DNA from: a virus
Direction: 5' to 3' (one strand)
DNA: 64,000 bases
IMG/VR virus record: IMGVR_UViG_3300031576_000014
Span: 30,583 to 94,582 of that record
A program made the translations under genes and the position numbers. This document shows, in pieces, positions 705 to 54,371 of the stretch. Positions within the stretch are counted from its first letter, which is position 1, and the number at the start of each line of letters is the position of its first letter. The notes beneath the pieces are model-generated. The model searched no databases. It was not told where the DNA came from and worked only from the letters and a program-made list of their open reading frames with translations.

Positions 705-2596
705 GCGACCACCTCCGCGCGCGACCAACCGCCCTCGCTCACGATCTCGATCCGCCCGGGCAAGCCGTGCATGGTCTGGGGATCGTGCGAGACGACGAAC
801 GCCTGCTCGACCCCGCCGCGGAGCACGAGCGCGCCGAGGTGCCGCGCAAACGCCCGCCGTTTCGACGTGTCGAGCGACCCGAACGGCTCGTCGAGGACGA
901 CGACGCCCCACGGGCTCCCGCGCTCCCCGCGCAGCCAGCCCCCCGCCGCGAGCCCGACCGCTGCGCCGGCGAGGTCGTCCGCCCCGCCAGAGTCGTGCGA
1001 CCTGTTGAACTCGAGCTTCGCCACGATGTTCGGACCCCTGCCCGCACCGCAGCGCGTGCAAACCTTCGCCGTCCTCGACGACGGGAACAGCATGCCGCAC
1101 CCGTCGCACGCGTGCGCCAGCCCTTGGCCCTCGCGCGACCAGCGGACGTCGACGCGCAGGTCGATCCCTGCCTCCGCCAGCCCCGCGTTCGCATCCTCCT
1201 CGATCTCCGCCAGCGCGTCTTCCGCAATCTTCCTCTGCGCACCGTTGCGCCCGAAGACCACCGCGGCCTCTCTCATGATCTCCGCGAAAGGCCGCGACAC
1301 CTCGATCTCCTTCTCGATCTCCGCGATCCTTCTCCTGGTCTCCGCTGCGCGCGAGACCGCCACCGCAGCCTCTGCGACCGCGCTCGTGGCCGCCCGCACC
1401 TGCTCGTACGCCTCGTCGTGCGCCCGCCGCAGCGCTGCCGCGTCCCCGGCCTCCGGAACGTTCCTCGCCGCCTCGGCGGCCGGCAGCATCCCCGCGATCT
1501 GCCCCCTCAGCGCATCGCCCTTGGCCTGCTGCCGCTCCGCCGCCTGGGTCTGCGCCTGCGCGCGCCCGTGCGCGGCCAGCGCCTTCTCGTGGACCGCCTT
1601 CGCCTCCTCGTAGGCATGCTGGAAGCGCTCCGCCTCCGTCCGGCACCTTTCCCTGTTCTCCTCGATGAACGCCCGCGCCGGGCACGGCGCCGAGACGACG
1701 GGACAAAGGCCGGCGAAGTCGCCGCCCGCGATCCCGCGGAAATGGTCGCGTCTCTTCATGTGGGCGCGCATCGCTTCCCCCGTCTCGTTCGCCTCCCTCC
1801 ACCGGTCCTTCGCGTCCGCCGGCGCCTTCGCCTGCACATGCTTCGCCAGCTCCTCGGACAACCGCACGAACTCCACGCGCACGTGCCGCGCCTTCTCCCG
1901 TGCCCCGTTCTCCTCAAGGTCCGCCGCAGCGTCCGACAGCTTCGCCCGGGCATGCTTCTCGCTGACCTTGGCCGCCTCGTGGGTCTTCAGAAGGGCCCCC
2001 TGGTCCCCGTCCTGGCTCCGCAGCACCTTCAGGAGCGCCTCCTTCTCCGCCGTCCCGTCCGTCGACGCTGCGAGCTTCGCGCGCGCGATCTCCGCGCAGC
2101 GCTCGACGGGCGCGAGCGACAGCCAAGAGACGACCACCTGCGTCCGGACCTCCGGCCGCGCGACGACGAGCTGCGAGAGCTTTTTTTGCTCGAAGAAGCT
2201 CGCCGTCATGAAGTCCTCCGACGAAAGCCCGACGAGGTCGTGGATCTTCTTCTGGGCCTCGTCCTTCCAGAGAACGCGCCCGCCGTCGTGGAGGGAAAGC
2301 TTCGTCGGCTTCCCCCGCTCGCGCGAGCGGCTCAGCACCTCGCCCGTGCTCAGAAGAACGACGACGCGGCCGTGGGCCTGCCCGTTCGAGATGAGCCCGT
2401 CCTCCGTCCGGTGCCGGTGCCAGCCGTCGAACGCGAAGCGGAGAGCCTCGAGCAGGTGCGTCTTGCCGAGCCAGTTCGAACACTCCGGATCGTCCACGCT
2501 CCTCGCGACGACGCCGTGCGCGCGCGCTCCTAGCCGGAGACGGTGCTCGCCGCGGAACGGACCCCAGTTCTCGACGAGCAGCTCGCGGACGTGCAT
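701..2596 (-). CDS. SbcC/Rad50-like SMC ATPase
   Basis: MHVRELLVENWGPF start, Walker A variant SNWLGKT, Q-loop FFEQ, coiled coil with a central Cys hook, SGG signature, Walker B VVVLDEPF, VVSH. Confidence 0.9.
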   Translation of the reverse strand: MHVRELLVENWGPFRGEHRLRLGARAHGVVARSVDDPECSNWLGKTHLLEALRFAFDGWHRHRTEDGLISNGQAHGRVVVLLSTGEVLSRSRERGKPTKLSLHDGGRVLWKDEAQKKIHDLVGLSSEDFMTASFFEQKKLSQLVVARPEVRTQVVVSWLSLAPVERCAEIARAKLAASTDGTAEKEALLKVLRSQDGDQGALLKTHEAAKVSEKHARAKLSDAAADLEENGAREKARHVRVEFVRLSEELAKHVQAKAPADAKDRWREANETGEAMRAHMKRRDHFRGIAGGDFAGLCPVVSAPCPARAFIEENRERCRTEAERFQHAYEEAKAVHEKALAAHGRAQAQTQAAERQQAKGDALRGQIAGMLPAAEAARNVPEAGDAAALRRAHDEAYEQVRAATSAVAEAAVAVSRAAETRRRIAEIEKEIEVSRPFAEIMREAAVVFGRNGAQRKIAEDALAEIEEDANAGLAEAGIDLRVDVRWSREGQGLAHACDGCGMLFPSSRTAKVCTRCGAGRGPNIVAKLEFNRSHDSGGADDLAGAAVGLAAGGWLRGERGSPWGVVVLDEPFGSLDTSKRRAFARHLGALVLRGGVEQAFVVSHDPQTMHGLPGRIEIVSEGGWSRAEVVA

Positions 2597-3006
2597 CAGA
2601 GACCGGCCTCGTCCATGATCGCCTCGCACGCCTCGCGCAGCGCCTTCTTGTCCTCGAACGAGCACGCCTCGACGACCTCGAGCACGACGTCCCGCGCCCT
2701 TGCCCGCTTCTTCCGGACGCGCGCGAGCGCCTCGTCGGGAAGCCTCGCCCGCCTCCGGCGCAGAACCCGTATCTCCCCCTCCGCGCCCATCTTCCGGGCC
2801 CACGCCCGCACGGCCTCGACCTGCTCGTCCGCGACGTCCGGGGGCGCGCGCACACGCACGAGCGCGCCCGCCGTCATCTGGTCGAACGCCATGTCTCCGT
2901 CCCAGACCGGACTGTCCTCGCCGATCGTCACGAGCCGCCTCGTCTCGACAGGGAAGAACTCCGTCTTCGGGACGAGCCGGATCGCGGGGTTTCTCCGGCG
3001 CGTCAA
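2596..3006 (-). CDS. hypothetical protein, possibly the separated C-terminal domain of SbcD/Mre11
   Basis: Coupled between the SbcD nuclease domain and SbcC; alpha/beta pattern (ALVRVRAP) followed by a helical tail. Confidence 0.55.
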   Translation of the reverse strand: MTRRRNPAIRLVPKTEFFPVETRRLVTIGEDSPVWDGDMAFDQMTAGALVRVRAPPDVADEQVEAVRAWARKMGAEGEIRVLRRRRARLPDEALARVRKKRARARDVVLEVVEACSFEDKKALREACEAIMDEAGL

Positions 3007-3722
3007 GCGACCTCGGAGACGATGAAGCCCGGATCGTTCCCTTCCTCCGCGAACGTCAACCGCACGAGGGAGCCCGGGATCTCGATTCCGTCCGGCGTCG
3101 TCTGCCGGCGGTGGTAGTGCCCGTTGATCATGAGACGCGCCTTGCCGCGAAGCTGCTCGACGGGAAAGAGCACCTCCCGCCCGCGGGGCATCTCCGCCGT
3201 CTCCTCCCCCGGGATCACGCCCGGGACGTGCAGGTGTCCTAAGACGACCAGCGGCAGCTCAGAGCTTTCCTTCACCGCGGCCGCCGCCGCCGCCGCCGGA
3301 TCGTAGGCGCAGGACCGCGCGGTGTACGGAAGCGTCAAGAACCTGGTGCTCCTCCAGACGAAGCTCTCCGCCTTCTCGAAAACCCCCGTCAGCCCTGCGC
3401 ACGAGCCCAGCGAGCAGAGCGGCTCGAGCGTGGTCCTTCCCCGCCCGTCCTCGATCACGTCGTGGTTGCCCGCCACCCAGAACGACATGATGCCCCGGGA
3501 CCGAAGCTCGCGCGCGGCGTCGAGCGCGAGCGCGACGCACCGGAAGACCGAGGACCCGGAGTCCGGGTCGCAGAGGTCGCCCGTCATCGCGTAGAGGTCG
3601 ACCTTCCTGTCGACCGCCTCCTTGACCGTCTGCTCGACGGCGCGCGCGACGTCGTCGAAGCGGTCGACGCCCCGCGTGCTCCAGTCGGCGTGCCAATCGC
3701 TACAGGTCAGGATGCGGAGCAC
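3003..3722 (-). CDS. SbcD/Mre11-like metallophosphoesterase nuclease
   Basis: Motifs SDWH, TGDL, GNHD, GHLH, GHYH. Confidence 0.9.
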   Translation of the reverse strand: MLRILTCSDWHADWSTRGVDRFDDVARAVEQTVKEAVDRKVDLYAMTGDLCDPDSGSSVFRCVALALDAARELRSRGIMSFWVAGNHDVIEDGRGRTTLEPLCSLGSCAGLTGVFEKAESFVWRSTRFLTLPYTARSCAYDPAAAAAAAVKESSELPLVVLGHLHVPGVIPGEETAEMPRGREVLFPVEQLRGKARLMINGHYHRRQTTPDGIEIPGSLVRLTFAEEGNDPGFIVSEVA

Positions 3723-19074: not shown

Positions 19075-21153
19075 CTATGCCGCCGCCGCGCGCCTCTTGA
19101 TGTACTCCTTCGCGGGCGTCCATCCGCCGTCCTCGAAGACGACGACGCGGGGGAACCACGTCTTCAGGTTCTTCAGGTGCTTCGGGAAAACGTGCCTGTC
19201 CCAGAGATAGTAAAACCTCGCGCCTCCCTTGCCCGTCGACGTCCGGCAGAAGCGGCCGCGCACCTGCCGGAAGAGCTGGCGGTTCGCCCCGATCGGCGTC
19301 GCGCCGATTCCCGTCCCGATCTTCGGGACGTCGATGCCCGTGCCGAACGCCTGGTACGTAGCGGAACCGGCCTTGAGCGTGCCGGCCTTCAGCCCGGACT
19401 TCGTCCTCTCGAACTCGACGGCGAAGTCCGGGCCGCCGATCAGGTAGCCACAGGGCGTTCCCATCGCGGAGATCGCCTGCCCGAAAGTCATCACGTGCTC
19501 GCGGTACTGCGCGAGCACGACGACCTGCTCGCCCTCCGCGATCGCCTCCCTGGCGAGCCGGAGCACGAGCCGGTTCCGGTCGTCGTCGCCCATCATCTCG
19601 ACGAGCAGACGGTGCCTGTCGACCCCGCGGTCCTCCCCGCCACGTAAACCGCGGTTTACGTCGTCGAAGCCCCCGTTCTCCGCGTCCGGGAGCCCGTACC
19701 AGTCCGCGCGGAAGTCCGTCGGCACGACCCGGACCTCGACGTCGAGGATGTGCCCGCTCTCGACAAGCTCCTTCTCGTCGACCTTCGCGGCCGTCGGACC
19801 GAACAGCTCCTTGATCAGGAACTCCTTCCGGTCCTTGCGACGCACGTCCGCCGTCGCGCCGATCCTGTACCTGGCCGGCAGCGGGTCGATTGCATCGAAG
19901 AGCGTCTTGCTTGCGAAGAGATGGCAGTTGTGAACGAGCACGCCGCCCACGACGAAGACACCACCCTCCGTTTCTAGATTGCAGACCGACGCGATCTCCG
20001 CGATGAAGCTTCGATCGATCCGCGCTCGGCCACGTCGAAGTCGAACTCCCCCCGGAAGCGGAGCACCAGCCAGCCCTTCGATTCGAGGAAGCAGGTTTTT
20101 CGTTCGTCGGCCGCCCCGCGGCTCTGCGCGATCATCGCCGGCCGTCGGGACCTCCACCGCTGACCCGATGAAAGCGCTGGCGCCCACTTCGCGCGCATCG
20201 ACGGATCTTTCCAAAGCTCTTTGAACATGAAGAGGATCACACCAAAGAACGTCATCGCAGCGAACACTTGAGACGCCGACCCATCCTTCACCCTCGACCG
20301 CAACCGGATGTTCGTCCGTCGCTCGCCATCCGGCCAACCGGACAGCCACGACGGCACGGCGTCGAGAAACGACGAGCACCGAACCTCCCGCCGCGACGCG
20401 TTCGCCAGGCCGGACCTCGCCGATCGATTTGAGCGTTCCGTCTTCCATCAGAACAGGCGCTCTCTCTTCAAAACACTCGTCCGCGAAGACCGCCCCGAAG
20501 TAGCGCTGGACGCCTGCCTCGCCCGAGCACTTCGCAAGCGTCTTGCCCATCGCGAGCGTCACGGGCCGCAGTCGCTGCGTCTGCCCCTGCACGACGCCGA
20601 TCTGGTCCGCCCGCATGCCGAGCTGCTCGCCGAGCTGCTCCCGCCACTGCCGGAGCAAGGCCGACGCATGCACGACGATGAGCACCGGGCACCGCACGCG
20701 CGGGATGAGCGAGATCAATGCGCACGTTTTTCCGCTGCCTTGCGGAGCTTCGATCAGGCAGCTCTCGCGCCCGAACGCGAGGTCGGCGAGCCGCGCCTGG
20801 TACGGGTAAAGCTCCCAGGCGTACTCCCCCGGCATGTTCGACTCCGCCGCGTCGACGAACCCTGTGTTCCTCTGGTCGCGGACCGTCCAGTCGATCTGAT
20901 GCTCGTCGAGCACCTCCCGCACCTTCGCGATCCCTCCGCGCGGGACGGAGAGGAATCGGTTCTTCCCGTCCTTCTCCTTCCGCCAGGTCACGATCGTTCT
21001 CGGCTCGTCCCAAACCGGGAGCCCGAGCCGGCGCTTCATCGCGTGCTGCGGGTTCTTGTGCTCGAAACGCTCCCGGAGCGCTGCCTGCGCGTTCTCCGGC
21101 ACGTCGTCGACGCAGAGCCGCGTCCGCGAGTCGACGACGATCAGGGCTGCCAC
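19075..21153 (-). CDS. superfamily 2 (UvsW/ResIII-like) helicase, intein-containing
   Basis: LYPYQ, APQGSGKT, DE|intein|CH (DECH after splicing), GATA, GTGIDVP, QVRGRFCR. Confidence 0.9.
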   Translation of the reverse strand: MAALIVVDSRTRLCVDDVPENAQAALRERFEHKNPQHAMKRRLGLPVWDEPRTIVTWRKEKDGKNRFLSVPRGGIAKVREVLDEHQIDWTVRDQRNTGFVDAAESNMPGEYAWELYPYQARLADLAFGRESCLIEAPQGSGKTCALISLIPRVRCPVLIVVHASALLRQWREQLGEQLGMRADQIGVVQGQTQRLRPVTLAMGKTLAKCSGEAGVQRYFGAVFADECFEERAPVLMEDGTLKSIGEVRPGERVAAGGSVLVVSRRRAVVAVRLAGWRATDEHPVAVEGEGWVGVSSVRCDDVLWCDPLHVQRALERSVDAREVGASAFIGSAVEVPTAGDDRAEPRGGRRTKNLLPRIEGLAGAPLPGGVRLRRGRARIDRSFIAEIASVCNLETEGGVFVVGGVLVHNCHLFASKTLFDAIDPLPARYRIGATADVRRKDRKEFLIKELFGPTAAKVDEKELVESGHILDVEVRVVPTDFRADWYGLPDAENGGFDDVNRGLRGGEDRGVDRHRLLVEMMGDDDRNRLVLRLAREAIAEGEQVVVLAQYREHVMTFGQAISAMGTPCGYLIGGPDFAVEFERTKSGLKAGTLKAGSATYQAFGTGIDVPKIGTGIGATPIGANRQLFRQVRGRFCRTSTGKGGARFYYLWDRHVFPKHLKNLKTWFPRVVVFEDGGWTPAKEYIKRRAAAA
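19642..19661. repeat. 20-bp palindrome, copy 3 (inside the helicase CDS)
   Basis: Exact copy; encodes part of DVNRGLR. Confidence 0.95.
19927..20475 (-). mobile_element. intein (183 aa) in the helicase DECH motif
   Basis: Starts CFEERAPV (block A); ATDEHPV (block B), VCNLETEG (block F), ends VLVHN followed by Cys+1. Confidence 0.92.
19974..20228 (-). pseudogene. overprinted (+1 frame) remnant of a DUF559/Vsr-like endonuclease inside the intein
   Basis: MFKELWKDPSMRAKW...ADERKTCFLESKGWLVLRF; the C-terminal DUF559-like motif is present but the catalytic core is missing. Confidence 0.55.
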
Positions 21154-52059: not shown

Positions 52060-52467
52060 GTGCGAAGACTGTCAACACCGAAAGGCGCCCCCGCCGACGC
52101 CGAAAGGGATGCTGCGAAGGTGGTTCGTCTGCCTCGACTGCGGCCTGAAGCAGTACATGGATCACGTCCCGATGCGCGAAGCGATCCCGATCCCAAAGTG
52201 CCAGCACGACCTCGACGCGCTCGACGAGTTCCTCCCGCGCCATCGCACGCCGTCTACCGCTACGTCGGCGAAGACGGGAAGCGCGGCCGCGTCCTCTCGC
52301 TCCACGCGACGATCGGGCAAGCGTTCGAGGCGTGCGACCTCGCGTCGGGCGCGTACATAGGCGAGGGTTCCGAATCCCGGGACGCGCGTGTCTCGCTCCG
52401 GACCGTGCGCGCCTACGTGCCCGGGTCCGTCGTCGGCGACGTCGTCGAGCTGCCCAGGCTCTATTAG
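52060..52467 (+). CDS. hypothetical protein
   Basis: GGAGG RBS before the GTG; fills the gap, convergent with the MuF gene. Confidence 0.4.
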   Translation: MRRLSTPKGAPADAERDAAKVVRLPRLRPEAVHGSRPDARSDPDPKVPARPRRARRVPPAPSHAVYRYVGEDGKRGRVLSLHATIGQAFEACDLASGAYIGEGSESRDARVSLRTVRAYVPGSVVGDVVELPRLY

Positions 52468-54371
52468 CGCCGCTTGCCGAACCGCGAGAGCGGGATGGTG
52501 GTCATGCGAGGACGCGGGGGAGGCGATCCCTTCCGCTTCTCCGCGCGCCACCGCGCCGCGATCTCGCCCGCGTCCCGCCAGCGGAACTCCTTCGGGATCG
52601 GCCAGGCGACGCGGTGCGGGACGACGATCTCGCGGTCGTTCGGGCGCGCGGGCGGATGCTGCATCAGCCCGTACCAGGTCTCGAACGCCTGGGCGCTCGC
52701 GCGGATCTGCCCGTGAACCGCGTAGGAGTCAGAGTTGCCCGTATAGATGCCTTCTGCGGTGAAGTAACCCTCGGACGTTGAAAGGTCGAAGACATGCCCG
52801 GAAATCGAAGTGGGTTGAACGTCAACGAGGCGATCGAGTTGTACCGAACCGGAATGACGTTGTCCGAGGTGGCGGGCACTCTCGACATTCATCGCCGATA
52901 TGTTGCCGAGGAGATCGCGGCACGCGGCGAAACTCGATCGAACGCCGAAGCTCGACGACGACAGTTCGCCAATCGCGAGAACCATCCTCGCTATCGCGAA
53001 GGCATGCCTATCAACCACATCGCCCATTCGTACATGAAAGGCGAAGCGATCAAACGCATAGGCAAGCGCCTCGGGGTCTCCCAGACGCTCGTCACTCGGT
53101 GCCTGCTCGATGCAGGGATCACACCACGCTCTGGTTCTGAAACAAACCATGTCCGCGCACGTTCGCGGGCTGATGAGCCTGCCGCATTCGACACAAAAAT
53201 GAACATCATCGGTTGGGGCGAGGACCTGCTTCGCGGCTGGCTCAGTGAGCGCGGCGAATCTCCCCAACCGCAGCTCGCCGTGGGAACGAAGAACATCGAT
53301 GTCGCGATTCGACCCATCGCCGTGGAAGTCTTGATCTCGTCCTCGTCGCCGCTCACGGTTTCCCGTTGCAAGCAGCGACTCGAATACCTCGCCGATCGTG
53401 GGTGGACGACCTGTTACGTGCTCATCTCTCGGCGCACTCGTACGCTCATGCCCACCGTCGCAGACCAGCTCATCGCCAAGGCGAAGTTTGCCCGCAGCGA
53501 CCCATCCGCGCCTCGTGAGCATTGGGTGATTCGGGGTTGTGGTGAGATCGCGGCCCGCTTCGGTGACGAAACGCGCCGCCGGTCCCTCGTATGGCCGTCG
53601 AAAGACTGCCCTCACCACCGCCCCGGCAACCCTCGTCGAACCGACTAAACACGCTGTTCTGTCGTCGAACGTCGCGACGAGGATCTTGCACACGTCGCCG
53701 AGCTGCTGGTGCGCCTCCTTCGTCGCCTCGTAGTTGGCGCGGTTCGCTGATCCCATTATTTCTGTGCGCACGATGCGCTCGGCCCAGCTCGCCGGCGCCT
53801 GCTGGAGGAACGGGCTCCTGTCGACGATCGAGGTGCGCATCGAGTCCCACGACCGGCGCGAGACGAGCCCGAGCTGAAGCTCCTTCTCGAAGTGCTCGAC
53901 CACTCCCGCCCCGTAGCGCGCAAGCACGCCCTCGCCGCGCTTGCCCTTCTCGCCGACGAGGCTCCTGAGGATCGACCCCCGGCTCCCGTCGAGCGCTGCC
54001 TCGAGCATGCGCGCCTCGTCGAGCGCGAGCGGCTGCGCGCCGACTCCGAGGAACTCCCTGTCCCGCGCCGCCAGGTAGCGCGCCGTCGACTCCGCCGCCT
54101 TCTCCGCCGCCGCCGCACCGACGTCGAGGGCGGTCCCGCGCAGCCCGGTGTTGAGCTGAAAGACCACTTCCCGGACCTGCGCAAGCGTCGCCCGGAGCTG
54201 CGCCGCCGTGAAGCTCGCATCCCCCGGCCCCGCGACCGCCCGCGCCAGGCGGCTCTCCAGGTCGCGCTCCGCTCGCTCGAGCAGCTTGCGCGTCCTCCCT
54301 ACGCCCGTCTGCTCCGCGAACACGTGCGCCGCCCGCTTGTCCGCGGCGAGCACCTCGCGTGCGGTCTTCAC
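52464..54371 (-). CDS. MuF/SPP1 gp7-like head morphogenesis protein, intein-containing
   Basis: WAERIVRTE, ATFDDRTA|intein|SDSYAVHGQ, HPPARPNDRE; follows the portal. Confidence 0.88.
   Translation of the reverse strand: MKTAREVLAADKRAAHVFAEQTGVGRTRKLLERAERDLESRLARAVAGPGDASFTAAQLRATLAQVREVVFQLNTGLRGTALDVGAAAAEKAAESTARYLAARDREFLGVGAQPLALDEARMLEAALDGSRGSILRSLVGEKGKRGEGVLARYGAGVVEHFEKELQLGLVSRRSWDSMRTSIVDRSPFLQQAPASWAERIVRTEIMGSANRANYEATKEAHQQLGDVCKILVATFDDRTACLVGSTRVAGAVVRAVFRRPYEGPAARFVTEAGRDLTTTPNHPMLTRRGWVAAGKLRLGDELVCDGGHERTSAPRDEHVTGRPPTIGEVFESLLATGNRERRRGRDQDFHGDGSNRDIDVLRSHGELRLGRFAALTEPAAKQVLAPTDDVHFCVECGRLISPRTCADMVCFRTRAWCDPCIEQAPSDERLGDPEALAYAFDRFAFHVRMGDVVDRHAFAIARMVLAIGELSSSSFGVRSSFAACRDLLGNISAMNVESARHLGQRHSGSVQLDRLVDVQPTSISGHVFDLSTSEGYFTAEGIYTGNSDSYAVHGQIRASAQAFETWYGLMQHPPARPNDREIVVPHRVAWPIPKEFRWRDAGEIAARWRAEKRKGSPPPRPRMTTIPLSRFGKRR
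52734..53651 (-). mobile_element. intein (306 aa) in the MuF-like protein
   Basis: CLVGSTRV (block A), TTTPNHPML..RGW (block B), GHVFDLST (block F), ends YTGN followed by Ser+1; no LAGLIDADG motifs. Confidence 0.9.
52794..53648 (+). CDS. antisense-encoded HTH + Vsr/DUF559-like PD-(D/E)XK endonuclease inside the intein
   Basis: Two HTH-like repeats; GEDLLRGWL..RG....Q..VG..NIDVAI..IAVEV...RLEYLADRGW; AAAGG RBS; normal amino-acid composition. Confidence 0.8.
   Translation: MPGNRSGLNVNEAIELYRTGMTLSEVAGTLDIHRRYVAEEIAARGETRSNAEARRRQFANRENHPRYREGMPINHIAHSYMKGEAIKRIGKRLGVSQTLVTRCLLDAGITPRSGSETNHVRARSRADEPAAFDTKMNIIGWGEDLLRGWLSERGESPQPQLAVGTKNIDVAIRPIAVEVLISSSSPLTVSRCKQRLEYLADRGWTTCYVLISRRTRTLMPTVADQLIAKAKFARSDPSAPREHWVIRGCGEIAARFGDETRRRSLVWPSKDCPHHRPGNPRRTD

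Follow-up and report, generated by a model that had tools for sequence, protein, structure and literature searches.

Several actinobacteriophage inteins carry a nuclease gene in a reading frame other than their own. Antisense LAGLIDADG, antisense VSR-like and same-strand frame-3 EndoVII-like nucleases have been described, in genes for DNA polymerase, minor capsid protein, terminase and thymidylate synthase (bioRxiv 10.1101/2025.01.02.630785). The invasion of an intein by a free-standing homing endonuclease gene was proposed as the origin of these cases (bioRxiv 10.1101/2025.01.02.630785), and decay to mini-inteins was predicted, with relics of that decay said still to be sought (bioRxiv 10.1101/2025.01.02.630785). 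An endonuclease out of frame is also reported for a dnaX intein of cyanobacteria (bioRxiv 10.64898/2026.09.14.751524). The subject here is an intein that interrupts a superfamily 2 (SF2) helicase gene in a window of 64,000 nucleotides, bases 30583-94582 of the 94.6-kb IMG/VR virus record IMGVR_UViG_3300031576_000014 (about 68% GC). This intein is very probably a shrunken member of a family of ~355-aa inteins that hold a nuclease in the +1 frame, and the open reading frame (ORF) in its own +1 frame the deleted remnant of that nuclease. An earlier interpretation of the window made without database searches (hereafter the sequence-only reading) had proposed a general class of inteins with overprinted nucleases; the class exists, but it is already described in preprints and is not a new idea. 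New here are a Vsr/DUF559 nuclease that starts with a Cys/His region and is encoded in +1 on the sense strand of an intein in helicase motif II, and the documentation of its relic.

As in the actinophage inteins (bioRxiv 10.1101/2025.01.02.630785), a separate nuclease ORF is overprinted between the splicing blocks and the frame-0 reading is structureless. In contrast, the VSR-like nucleases of those inteins are antisense, their sole same-strand case is EndoVII-like and none has a helicase host, whereas the present ORF is DUF559/Vsr-like, sense +1 and located in a helicase gene. The 'fractured genes' (Dassa et al. 2009, PMC2677866) likewise combine a Vsr-like nuclease, as a separate ORF, with an intein; there, however, the gene and its intein are split and the nuclease lies between the parts with no overlap, while here the intein is contiguous and overlapped in +1. 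The phage methylase of ShiLan, with its hidden out-of-frame HNH nuclease (PMC11855218), is similar in that a homing nuclease is overprinted on a stop-free in-frame insertion in a host gene, and the literature raises the question of its translation as well, but that insertion has no splicing domain and its nuclease is of the HNH type. The helicase intein extends the known combinations to a sense-strand Vsr/DUF559 nuclease, to helicase motif II and to uncultured phages outside PhagesDB.

A HMMER search of 1.84 billion cluster representatives identified 25 proteins with this intein, nearly all of them helicases interrupted at DE/CH or DE/CQ (the slash marks the splice junction). The intein measures 348-367 aa in 17 of the 25 and is short (119-275 aa) in a few; at 50% identity the long alleles form at least 17 clusters. 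A Pfam nuclease in frame 0 was found in none of the 25, and their frame-0 inserts are homologous, poorly conserved and rich in R, G, E, A and W. The deletion end points differ among the short alleles P0007 (166 aa), P0013 (238 aa), P0021 (120 aa) and P0028 (119 aa), a sign that the overprinted nuclease may have been lost several times independently.

The DNA of long alleles was sought by scanning sequence collections with back-translated patterns of intein blocks F and G. The strict pattern NLETEGGV(Y/F)V gave no match in viral, metagenome or genome contigs, and VYVAGGxLVHNC gave none in IMG/VR. A relaxed block-F/G pattern retrieved three entries with an identical intein, namely L060 (a 59.9-kb contig), L061 and L063, the last being the IMG/VR copy of the same contig. 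Among GTDB genomes the relaxed pattern matched only a GyrA intein of Saccharothrix obliqua (NZ_JAHXGQ010000003.1, L062 2802-6308; ..HAFVVAGRFVHN/CMGKYHPHGD), which lies outside this family and was set aside. A tblastn search of GenBank phages with the family member P0003 returned helicase parts only and no related intein.

The L060 intein contains, between its splicing blocks and over an uninterrupted frame 0, a complete ORF in the +1 frame ((1683-719) mod 3 = 1), and the same holds for L061 and L063. Its translation matches DUF559 (PF04480) with an E-value of 1.5e-11 and 44.6 bits against a Pfam cut-off of 20.6, and also matches MTES_1575 and DUF2726 of the same clan. Longer alleles with a complete +1 DUF559 ORF, as anticipated by the sequence-only reading, are thereby at hand in this 252-aa ORF. 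Like DUF559 proteins such as the Neisseria endonuclease-like protein in PDB entry 3HRL, it aligns through the catalytic columns: the sequence match to 3HRL (E 0.031) brings the columns D-F..E.DG..H..D..L..G.TV.RF into register, with D187, E198, D200 and H204 opposite 3HRL residues. Typical DUF559 genes, unlike the present ones, are free-standing and bacterial, and of the DUF559 profile the window copy has kept no more than the final ~24 positions. Three called PF04480 proteins of 260-262 aa, a free-standing size (P0029-P0031), share the architecture of the L060 product, Cys/His clusters included.

AlphaFold2 modelled the nuclease domain of the L060 protein with pLDDT (predicted local distance difference test) values of about 70-87, and the top Foldseek matches of this model are all Vsr-like nucleases (PvuRts1I, I-Bth0305I, 3HRL and 1VSR). 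I-Bth0305I (PDB 3R3P), the second match, was found with probability 1.00 and a target template modelling score of 0.62, at an E-value of only 6e-3. This enzyme of the EDxHD family (PMC3239194) resembles the L060 protein in placing a Vsr-like catalytic domain after a DNA-binding N-terminal part, but it is encoded by a group I intron (PMC3239194), and L060 reads L-E-I-D-G-S-S-H, which has the E-x-D-G-x-x-H spacing of DUF559 and not the E-D-x-H-D arrangement. By sequence and predicted fold, the L060 ORF clearly qualifies as a DUF559/Vsr-like nuclease. Its first 60 residues (L060 1683-1860) contain two Cys/His clusters, C-x2-C...C-x2-H and C-x2-C...H...C, which probably constitute a zinc-binding DNA-recognition module, although the N-terminus was modelled at low confidence.

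The third-position GC content (GC3) of the L060 nuclease region is 0.72 in the +1 frame, equal to that of the exteins, and 0.56 in frame 0. The start codon of the nuclease consists of the last two bases of a conserved frame-0 His codon (CAT), belonging to the Hint motif D-P-L-H, and the first G of the next codon (L060 1681-1685; window 20226-20230). Across the alleles, this His is nearly always followed by E, A, D or V, so that a residue of the splicing domain and the nuclease start codon are co-encoded.

Sixteen further long alleles are known as proteins, and for these it was asked, position by position, if the frame-0 dipeptide can encode the +1 residue of L060. The hallmark residues D187, E198, D200, G201, H204, D213, R215, K216, L220, G224, W225, V227, R229 and F230 are compatible in 15-16 of the 16 alleles, as are C6, C34, C37, H49, C54 and W60 of the N-terminal part. 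The Cys/His clusters as a whole can be encoded in 13-16 alleles, the S.GQR.R motif of the middle region in 13-16 and the start ATG in 13. Variable positions between the hallmarks are nearly incompatible (T226 in 3/16, K228 in 0/16), and frame-0 identity at the hallmark positions amounts to only 2-11 of 16. Of the 78 positions in the nuclease domain, a score of 15/16 or higher is attained by 23 in +1, by four in +2 and by none in frame 0. Positions at which L060 and 3HRL carry the same residue show an enrichment of compatibility in +1 (p 0.009) and none in +2 (p 0.34). A measure of maximum achievable +1 identity was discarded as not discriminating, since the middle base of the +1 codons is free. 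The compatibility pattern reproduces the DUF559 motif residue by residue and points, indirectly, to conservation of the frame across alleles.

These results bear on the alternative that an ancestral in-frame Vsr-like endonuclease was put out of frame by compensating indels. Interconversion of same-strand secondary ORFs and in-frame domains by 1-2 bp indels has indeed been proposed in a 2025 preprint (bioRxiv 10.1101/2025.01.02.630785). Yet the L060 nuclease begins at an ATG and ends at a stop codon of its own, both within the intein, and 31 codons upstream of that ATG the +1 frame is closed by another stop. Each of the 16 other long alleles also fits this +1 register, and a frame-0 copy of the nuclease is absent from all 25 members of the family. 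A frameshifted domain is therefore very unlikely.

Turning to the window, the helicase matches ResIII with an E-value of 9.4e-8 and reads ..FADE/CFEERAPVLMEDG...GVLVHN/CHLFAS across the two junctions. The claim of the sequence-only reading that a 183-aa intein splits the DECH motif agrees with these DE/CH junctions and with the splicing residues: the class-1 set is complete, with C227, T279-D-E-H282 in block B, H408-N409 and the +1 Cys C410. Profile scores are low for the window intein (Vint E 0.0013, Hint E 0.0088, both below the Pfam cut-offs) and far better for family members (Intein_splicing 1.7e-20, Hint 1.8e-18). The AlphaFold2 model built from the 25-sequence alignment has a mean pLDDT of 81 and Hint strands at about 80. 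Every splicing residue is retained, and the intein is probably competent to splice, given its intact catalytic residues and its location inside helicase motif II. A low-information linker of ~85 aa had also been claimed; such a linker is real, but at about 40 aa (aa 316-354) it is less than half that long. Its pLDDT values are 27-31, the model gives it no secondary structure, and Hint strands flank it at either end.

The +1 frame of the window intein is open over 19974..20357, at an offset of 796 nt relative to the start of the gene (796 mod 3 = 1), and its translation from the ATG at 20228 is MFKELWKDPSMRAKW...ADERKTCFLESKGWLVLRF... PF04480 is the sole Pfam family matched by this ORF (E 0.015), with aa 80-103 aligned to positions 67-90 of the 109 in the profile. 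BLASTP aligned it to the L060 nuclease in two collinear blocks, window aa 44-69 with L060 aa 90-115 (E 1e-7, 50% identity) and window aa 78-106 with L060 aa 207-235 (E 2e-5, 45% identity). MAFFT misplaced the middle of the two inteins, and their DNA alignment was anchored on these protein blocks. In segment 1 the identity is 13/26 in +1 and 9/27 in frame 0, at a DNA divergence of about 43%; in segment 2 it is 13/29 and 9/30. The D ... E-x-D-G-x-x-H core is missing from the window ORF, as had been stated from the sequence: eight codons stand where L060 aa 116-206 lie. Nuclease aa 1-89, the Cys/His region, are absent too, and the window ATG and the L060 start both fall on the same His-codon junction. 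The two inteins differ in length by 173 codons, that is, 89 + 83 + 1. The alignments establish the anatomy of the intein, its homology to L060, the frame of the nuclease and the deletions. The description 'internally deleted overprinted endonuclease' was correct, in that two collinear blocks flank the missing core, and it omitted the loss of the N-terminal 89 codons. Judged on its sequence, the window ORF is a relic of a DUF559/Vsr-like nuclease and not a member of the family. Coordinates are collected in Table 1.

Table 1 Features of the helicase intein in the window and of its intact homologue in L060. Positions in L060 are those of the L060 contig; all others are window positions.
Feature	Position	Strand	Basis or remark
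SF2 (ResIII/DEAD-type) helicase gene	19075..21153	-	692 codons, interrupted by the intein; ORF and translation, ResIII match
Class-1 mini-intein, 183 aa (helicase aa 227-409)	19927..20475	-	Splits motif II at DE/CH; the site is shared by 25 homologous inteins
Intein block B (TDEHPVAV), frame 0	20296..20319	-	T279, H282 and P283 invariant or nearly so in the 25-sequence alignment
Intein blocks F/G (NLETEGGVFVVGGVLVHN), frame 0	19927..19980	-	+1 TAG stop of the relic lies inside the N-L-E codons
Relic of overprinted +1 nuclease gene (ATG, 84 codons, TAG)	19974..20228	-	Translation, collinear BLASTP to the L060 nuclease, codon log-odds
Relic segment 1 (MFKELWKDPSMRAKWAPALSSGQRWR)	20151..20228	-	Homologous to L060 nuclease aa 90-115, middle helical region
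Deletion junction	20127..20150	-	8 codons replace 91 (aa 116-206, including the D..E.DG..H catalytic core)
Relic segment 2 (..ADERKTCFLESKGWLVLRFRGEFD)	20040..20126	-	Homologous to L060 nuclease aa 207-235; holds the DUF559 profile match 20049-20120
Frame-0 reading of the relic, unstructured intein linker (helicase aa 316-354)	20092..20208	-	AlphaFold2
L060 helicase	719..3400		Intein 1436-2503, 356 aa, at DE/CQ
L060 intact +1 nuclease ORF	1683..2441	same strand as helicase	252 aa, ATG start, wholly within the intein

The possibility that GC-rich DNA simply leaves frames open, and that a 24-residue DUF559-like motif arose in one of them by accident, draws on the properties of the window ORF itself. 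An open +1 frame is not unusual: 63% of synonymous-codon permutations are also stop-free across the region, which makes openness uninformative by itself. The PF04480 match that the sequence-only reading expected in the +1 frame is present and covers the C-terminal motif, but at 15.6 bits it is below threshold. The ORF has no match in a word search of 5.8 billion proteins and none in plasmids, and a PDB search gave nothing but a spurious rhodanese match. Against accident, a six-frame search of the whole 94.6-kb record yielded the relic as the sole PF04480 candidate (E 0.0019, window 20049-20120), and that candidate is located inside an intein. Moreover, the two collinear blocks align to a genuine DUF559 ORF that occupies the same location, in +1, of the homologous L060 intein, and the nearest ESM atlas clusters are all of the DUF559 clan (score 0.83, a lead only). 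A chance origin is thus extremely improbable.

Several observations nevertheless weigh against a decayed overprinted nuclease. The PF04480 score of the window ORF fails the family gathering threshold of 20.6 bits, and its +1 similarity to L060 is in part expected from DNA homology in any frame. The long alleles read as DNA amount to one independent case, L060, and codon compatibility in the others is indirect, being blind to the middle base of most +1 codons and to stops. The L060 nuclease model is weak overall (mean pLDDT 55), and its Foldseek E-values are only 3.5e-3 to 0.09. Finally, no convincing Shine-Dalgarno sequence was seen before the ATG in L060 or in the window.

The origin of the locus that we favour would run as follows. 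The ~355-aa inteins sit at motif II (DE/CH or DE/CQ) of a phage SF2 helicase, and in the intact members the stretch between the splicing blocks would be read twice. Frame 0 would supply an unstructured linker, for which the absence of stops would suffice for the precursor to splice. The +1 sense frame would supply a separate protein of ~252 aa, presumably expressed from the internal ATG and composed of a Cys/His (zinc-finger-like) N-terminus, a middle part that is helical and basic and, at the C-terminus, a DUF559/Vsr-like PD-(D/E)xK domain. By analogy to other intein- and intron-borne Vsr-like nucleases, this protein may cut intein-less helicase alleles and so drive homing, and splicing of the intein would rescue helicase function. 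In the window phage, the Cys/His region and the catalytic core have been lost through two in-frame deletions, of about 89 and about 83 codons respectively. The remaining 84-codon +1 ORF cannot act as a nuclease, and the mini-intein would persist, no longer mobile on its own.

Whether the 84-codon ORF is still a gene, translated into a small DNA-binding or competitor protein, is a separate matter. Its ATG is kept, the frame is open and the family motifs S.GQR.R and D..K...L...GW.VLRF are retained. Over helicase aa 290-310 and 340-370, codon log-odds trained on the phage's own genes are also better for +1 than for frame 0, and in the synonymous-codon permutations the +1 frame reaches a z of 3.2-3.5 compared with a maximum of 2.7 among 49 control segments of ordinary genes, which is only modest support because the permutation null runs high in ordinary genes (control mean z 0.95). 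Both measures count equally in favour of a nuclease ancestry of this frame. On the other side, the Cys/His region and the whole catalytic core are gone, openness is expected by chance and a ribosome-binding site was not found before the ATG. The frame-0 segment beneath the DUF559 C-terminal motif is conserved as well (LPR.EGL.G..LPG.VRL); this stretch appears to be genuinely under dual constraint, in frame 0 and in +1, and the frame-0 constraint could alone preserve part of the segment. With nothing positive in its favour, continued function of the relic seems quite unlikely. A bolder proposal is that the relic is kept as a translated basic helix plus the last Vsr strand-helix that would recognise the homing site and could, for instance, compete with the intact nucleases of co-infecting phages or confer immunity to them. 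Independently, the lineage would provide the first description of a Vsr-like homing nuclease in sense-strand +1 with a start codon and a C-terminal motif that share their bases with conserved Hint residues; taken jointly, the two proposals are a long shot.

With the relic understood as the wreckage of an overprinted nuclease, both ends of the homing cycle appear to have been caught, in intact alleles with a 252-aa +1 nuclease and in a mini-intein with recognisable remains. Gene callers and intein databases miss such nucleases, and intein 'linker' regions that look like noise are worth translating in six frames.

Helicase homologues free of the intein are present in the related IMG/VR phages L003-L009, an indirect indication that the nuclease may home. 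Motif II of L004-L009 reads DEAQ, DEVH or DEVQ, as against DE/CH or DE/CQ in the intein-bearing alleles; the +1 Cys of the latter stands where the empty sites have Ala or Val. The GC3 of the window intein is 0.4-0.7, compared with 0.9 or more in both exteins. This low value fits acquisition from a phage of lower GC content (L060 has 60% GC) together with constraint from a second frame.

A second intein of the same phage lies in a 635-aa MuF-like ORF (window 52464-54371, minus strand; Intein_splicing E 1.2e-5). The helicase relic and the antisense ORF of this MuF intein share no significant similarity by BLASTP. That ORF, 284 aa on the opposite strand (52794-53648, plus strand), matches HTH_23 with 26.2 bits, above the Pfam cut-off, as well as HTH_38, and ends in a Vsr-like ...AVEV...R...L...RGW... 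tail. Overprinting has taken two different forms in this one phage genome: in the MuF gene it is antisense, in the helicase gene sense +1.

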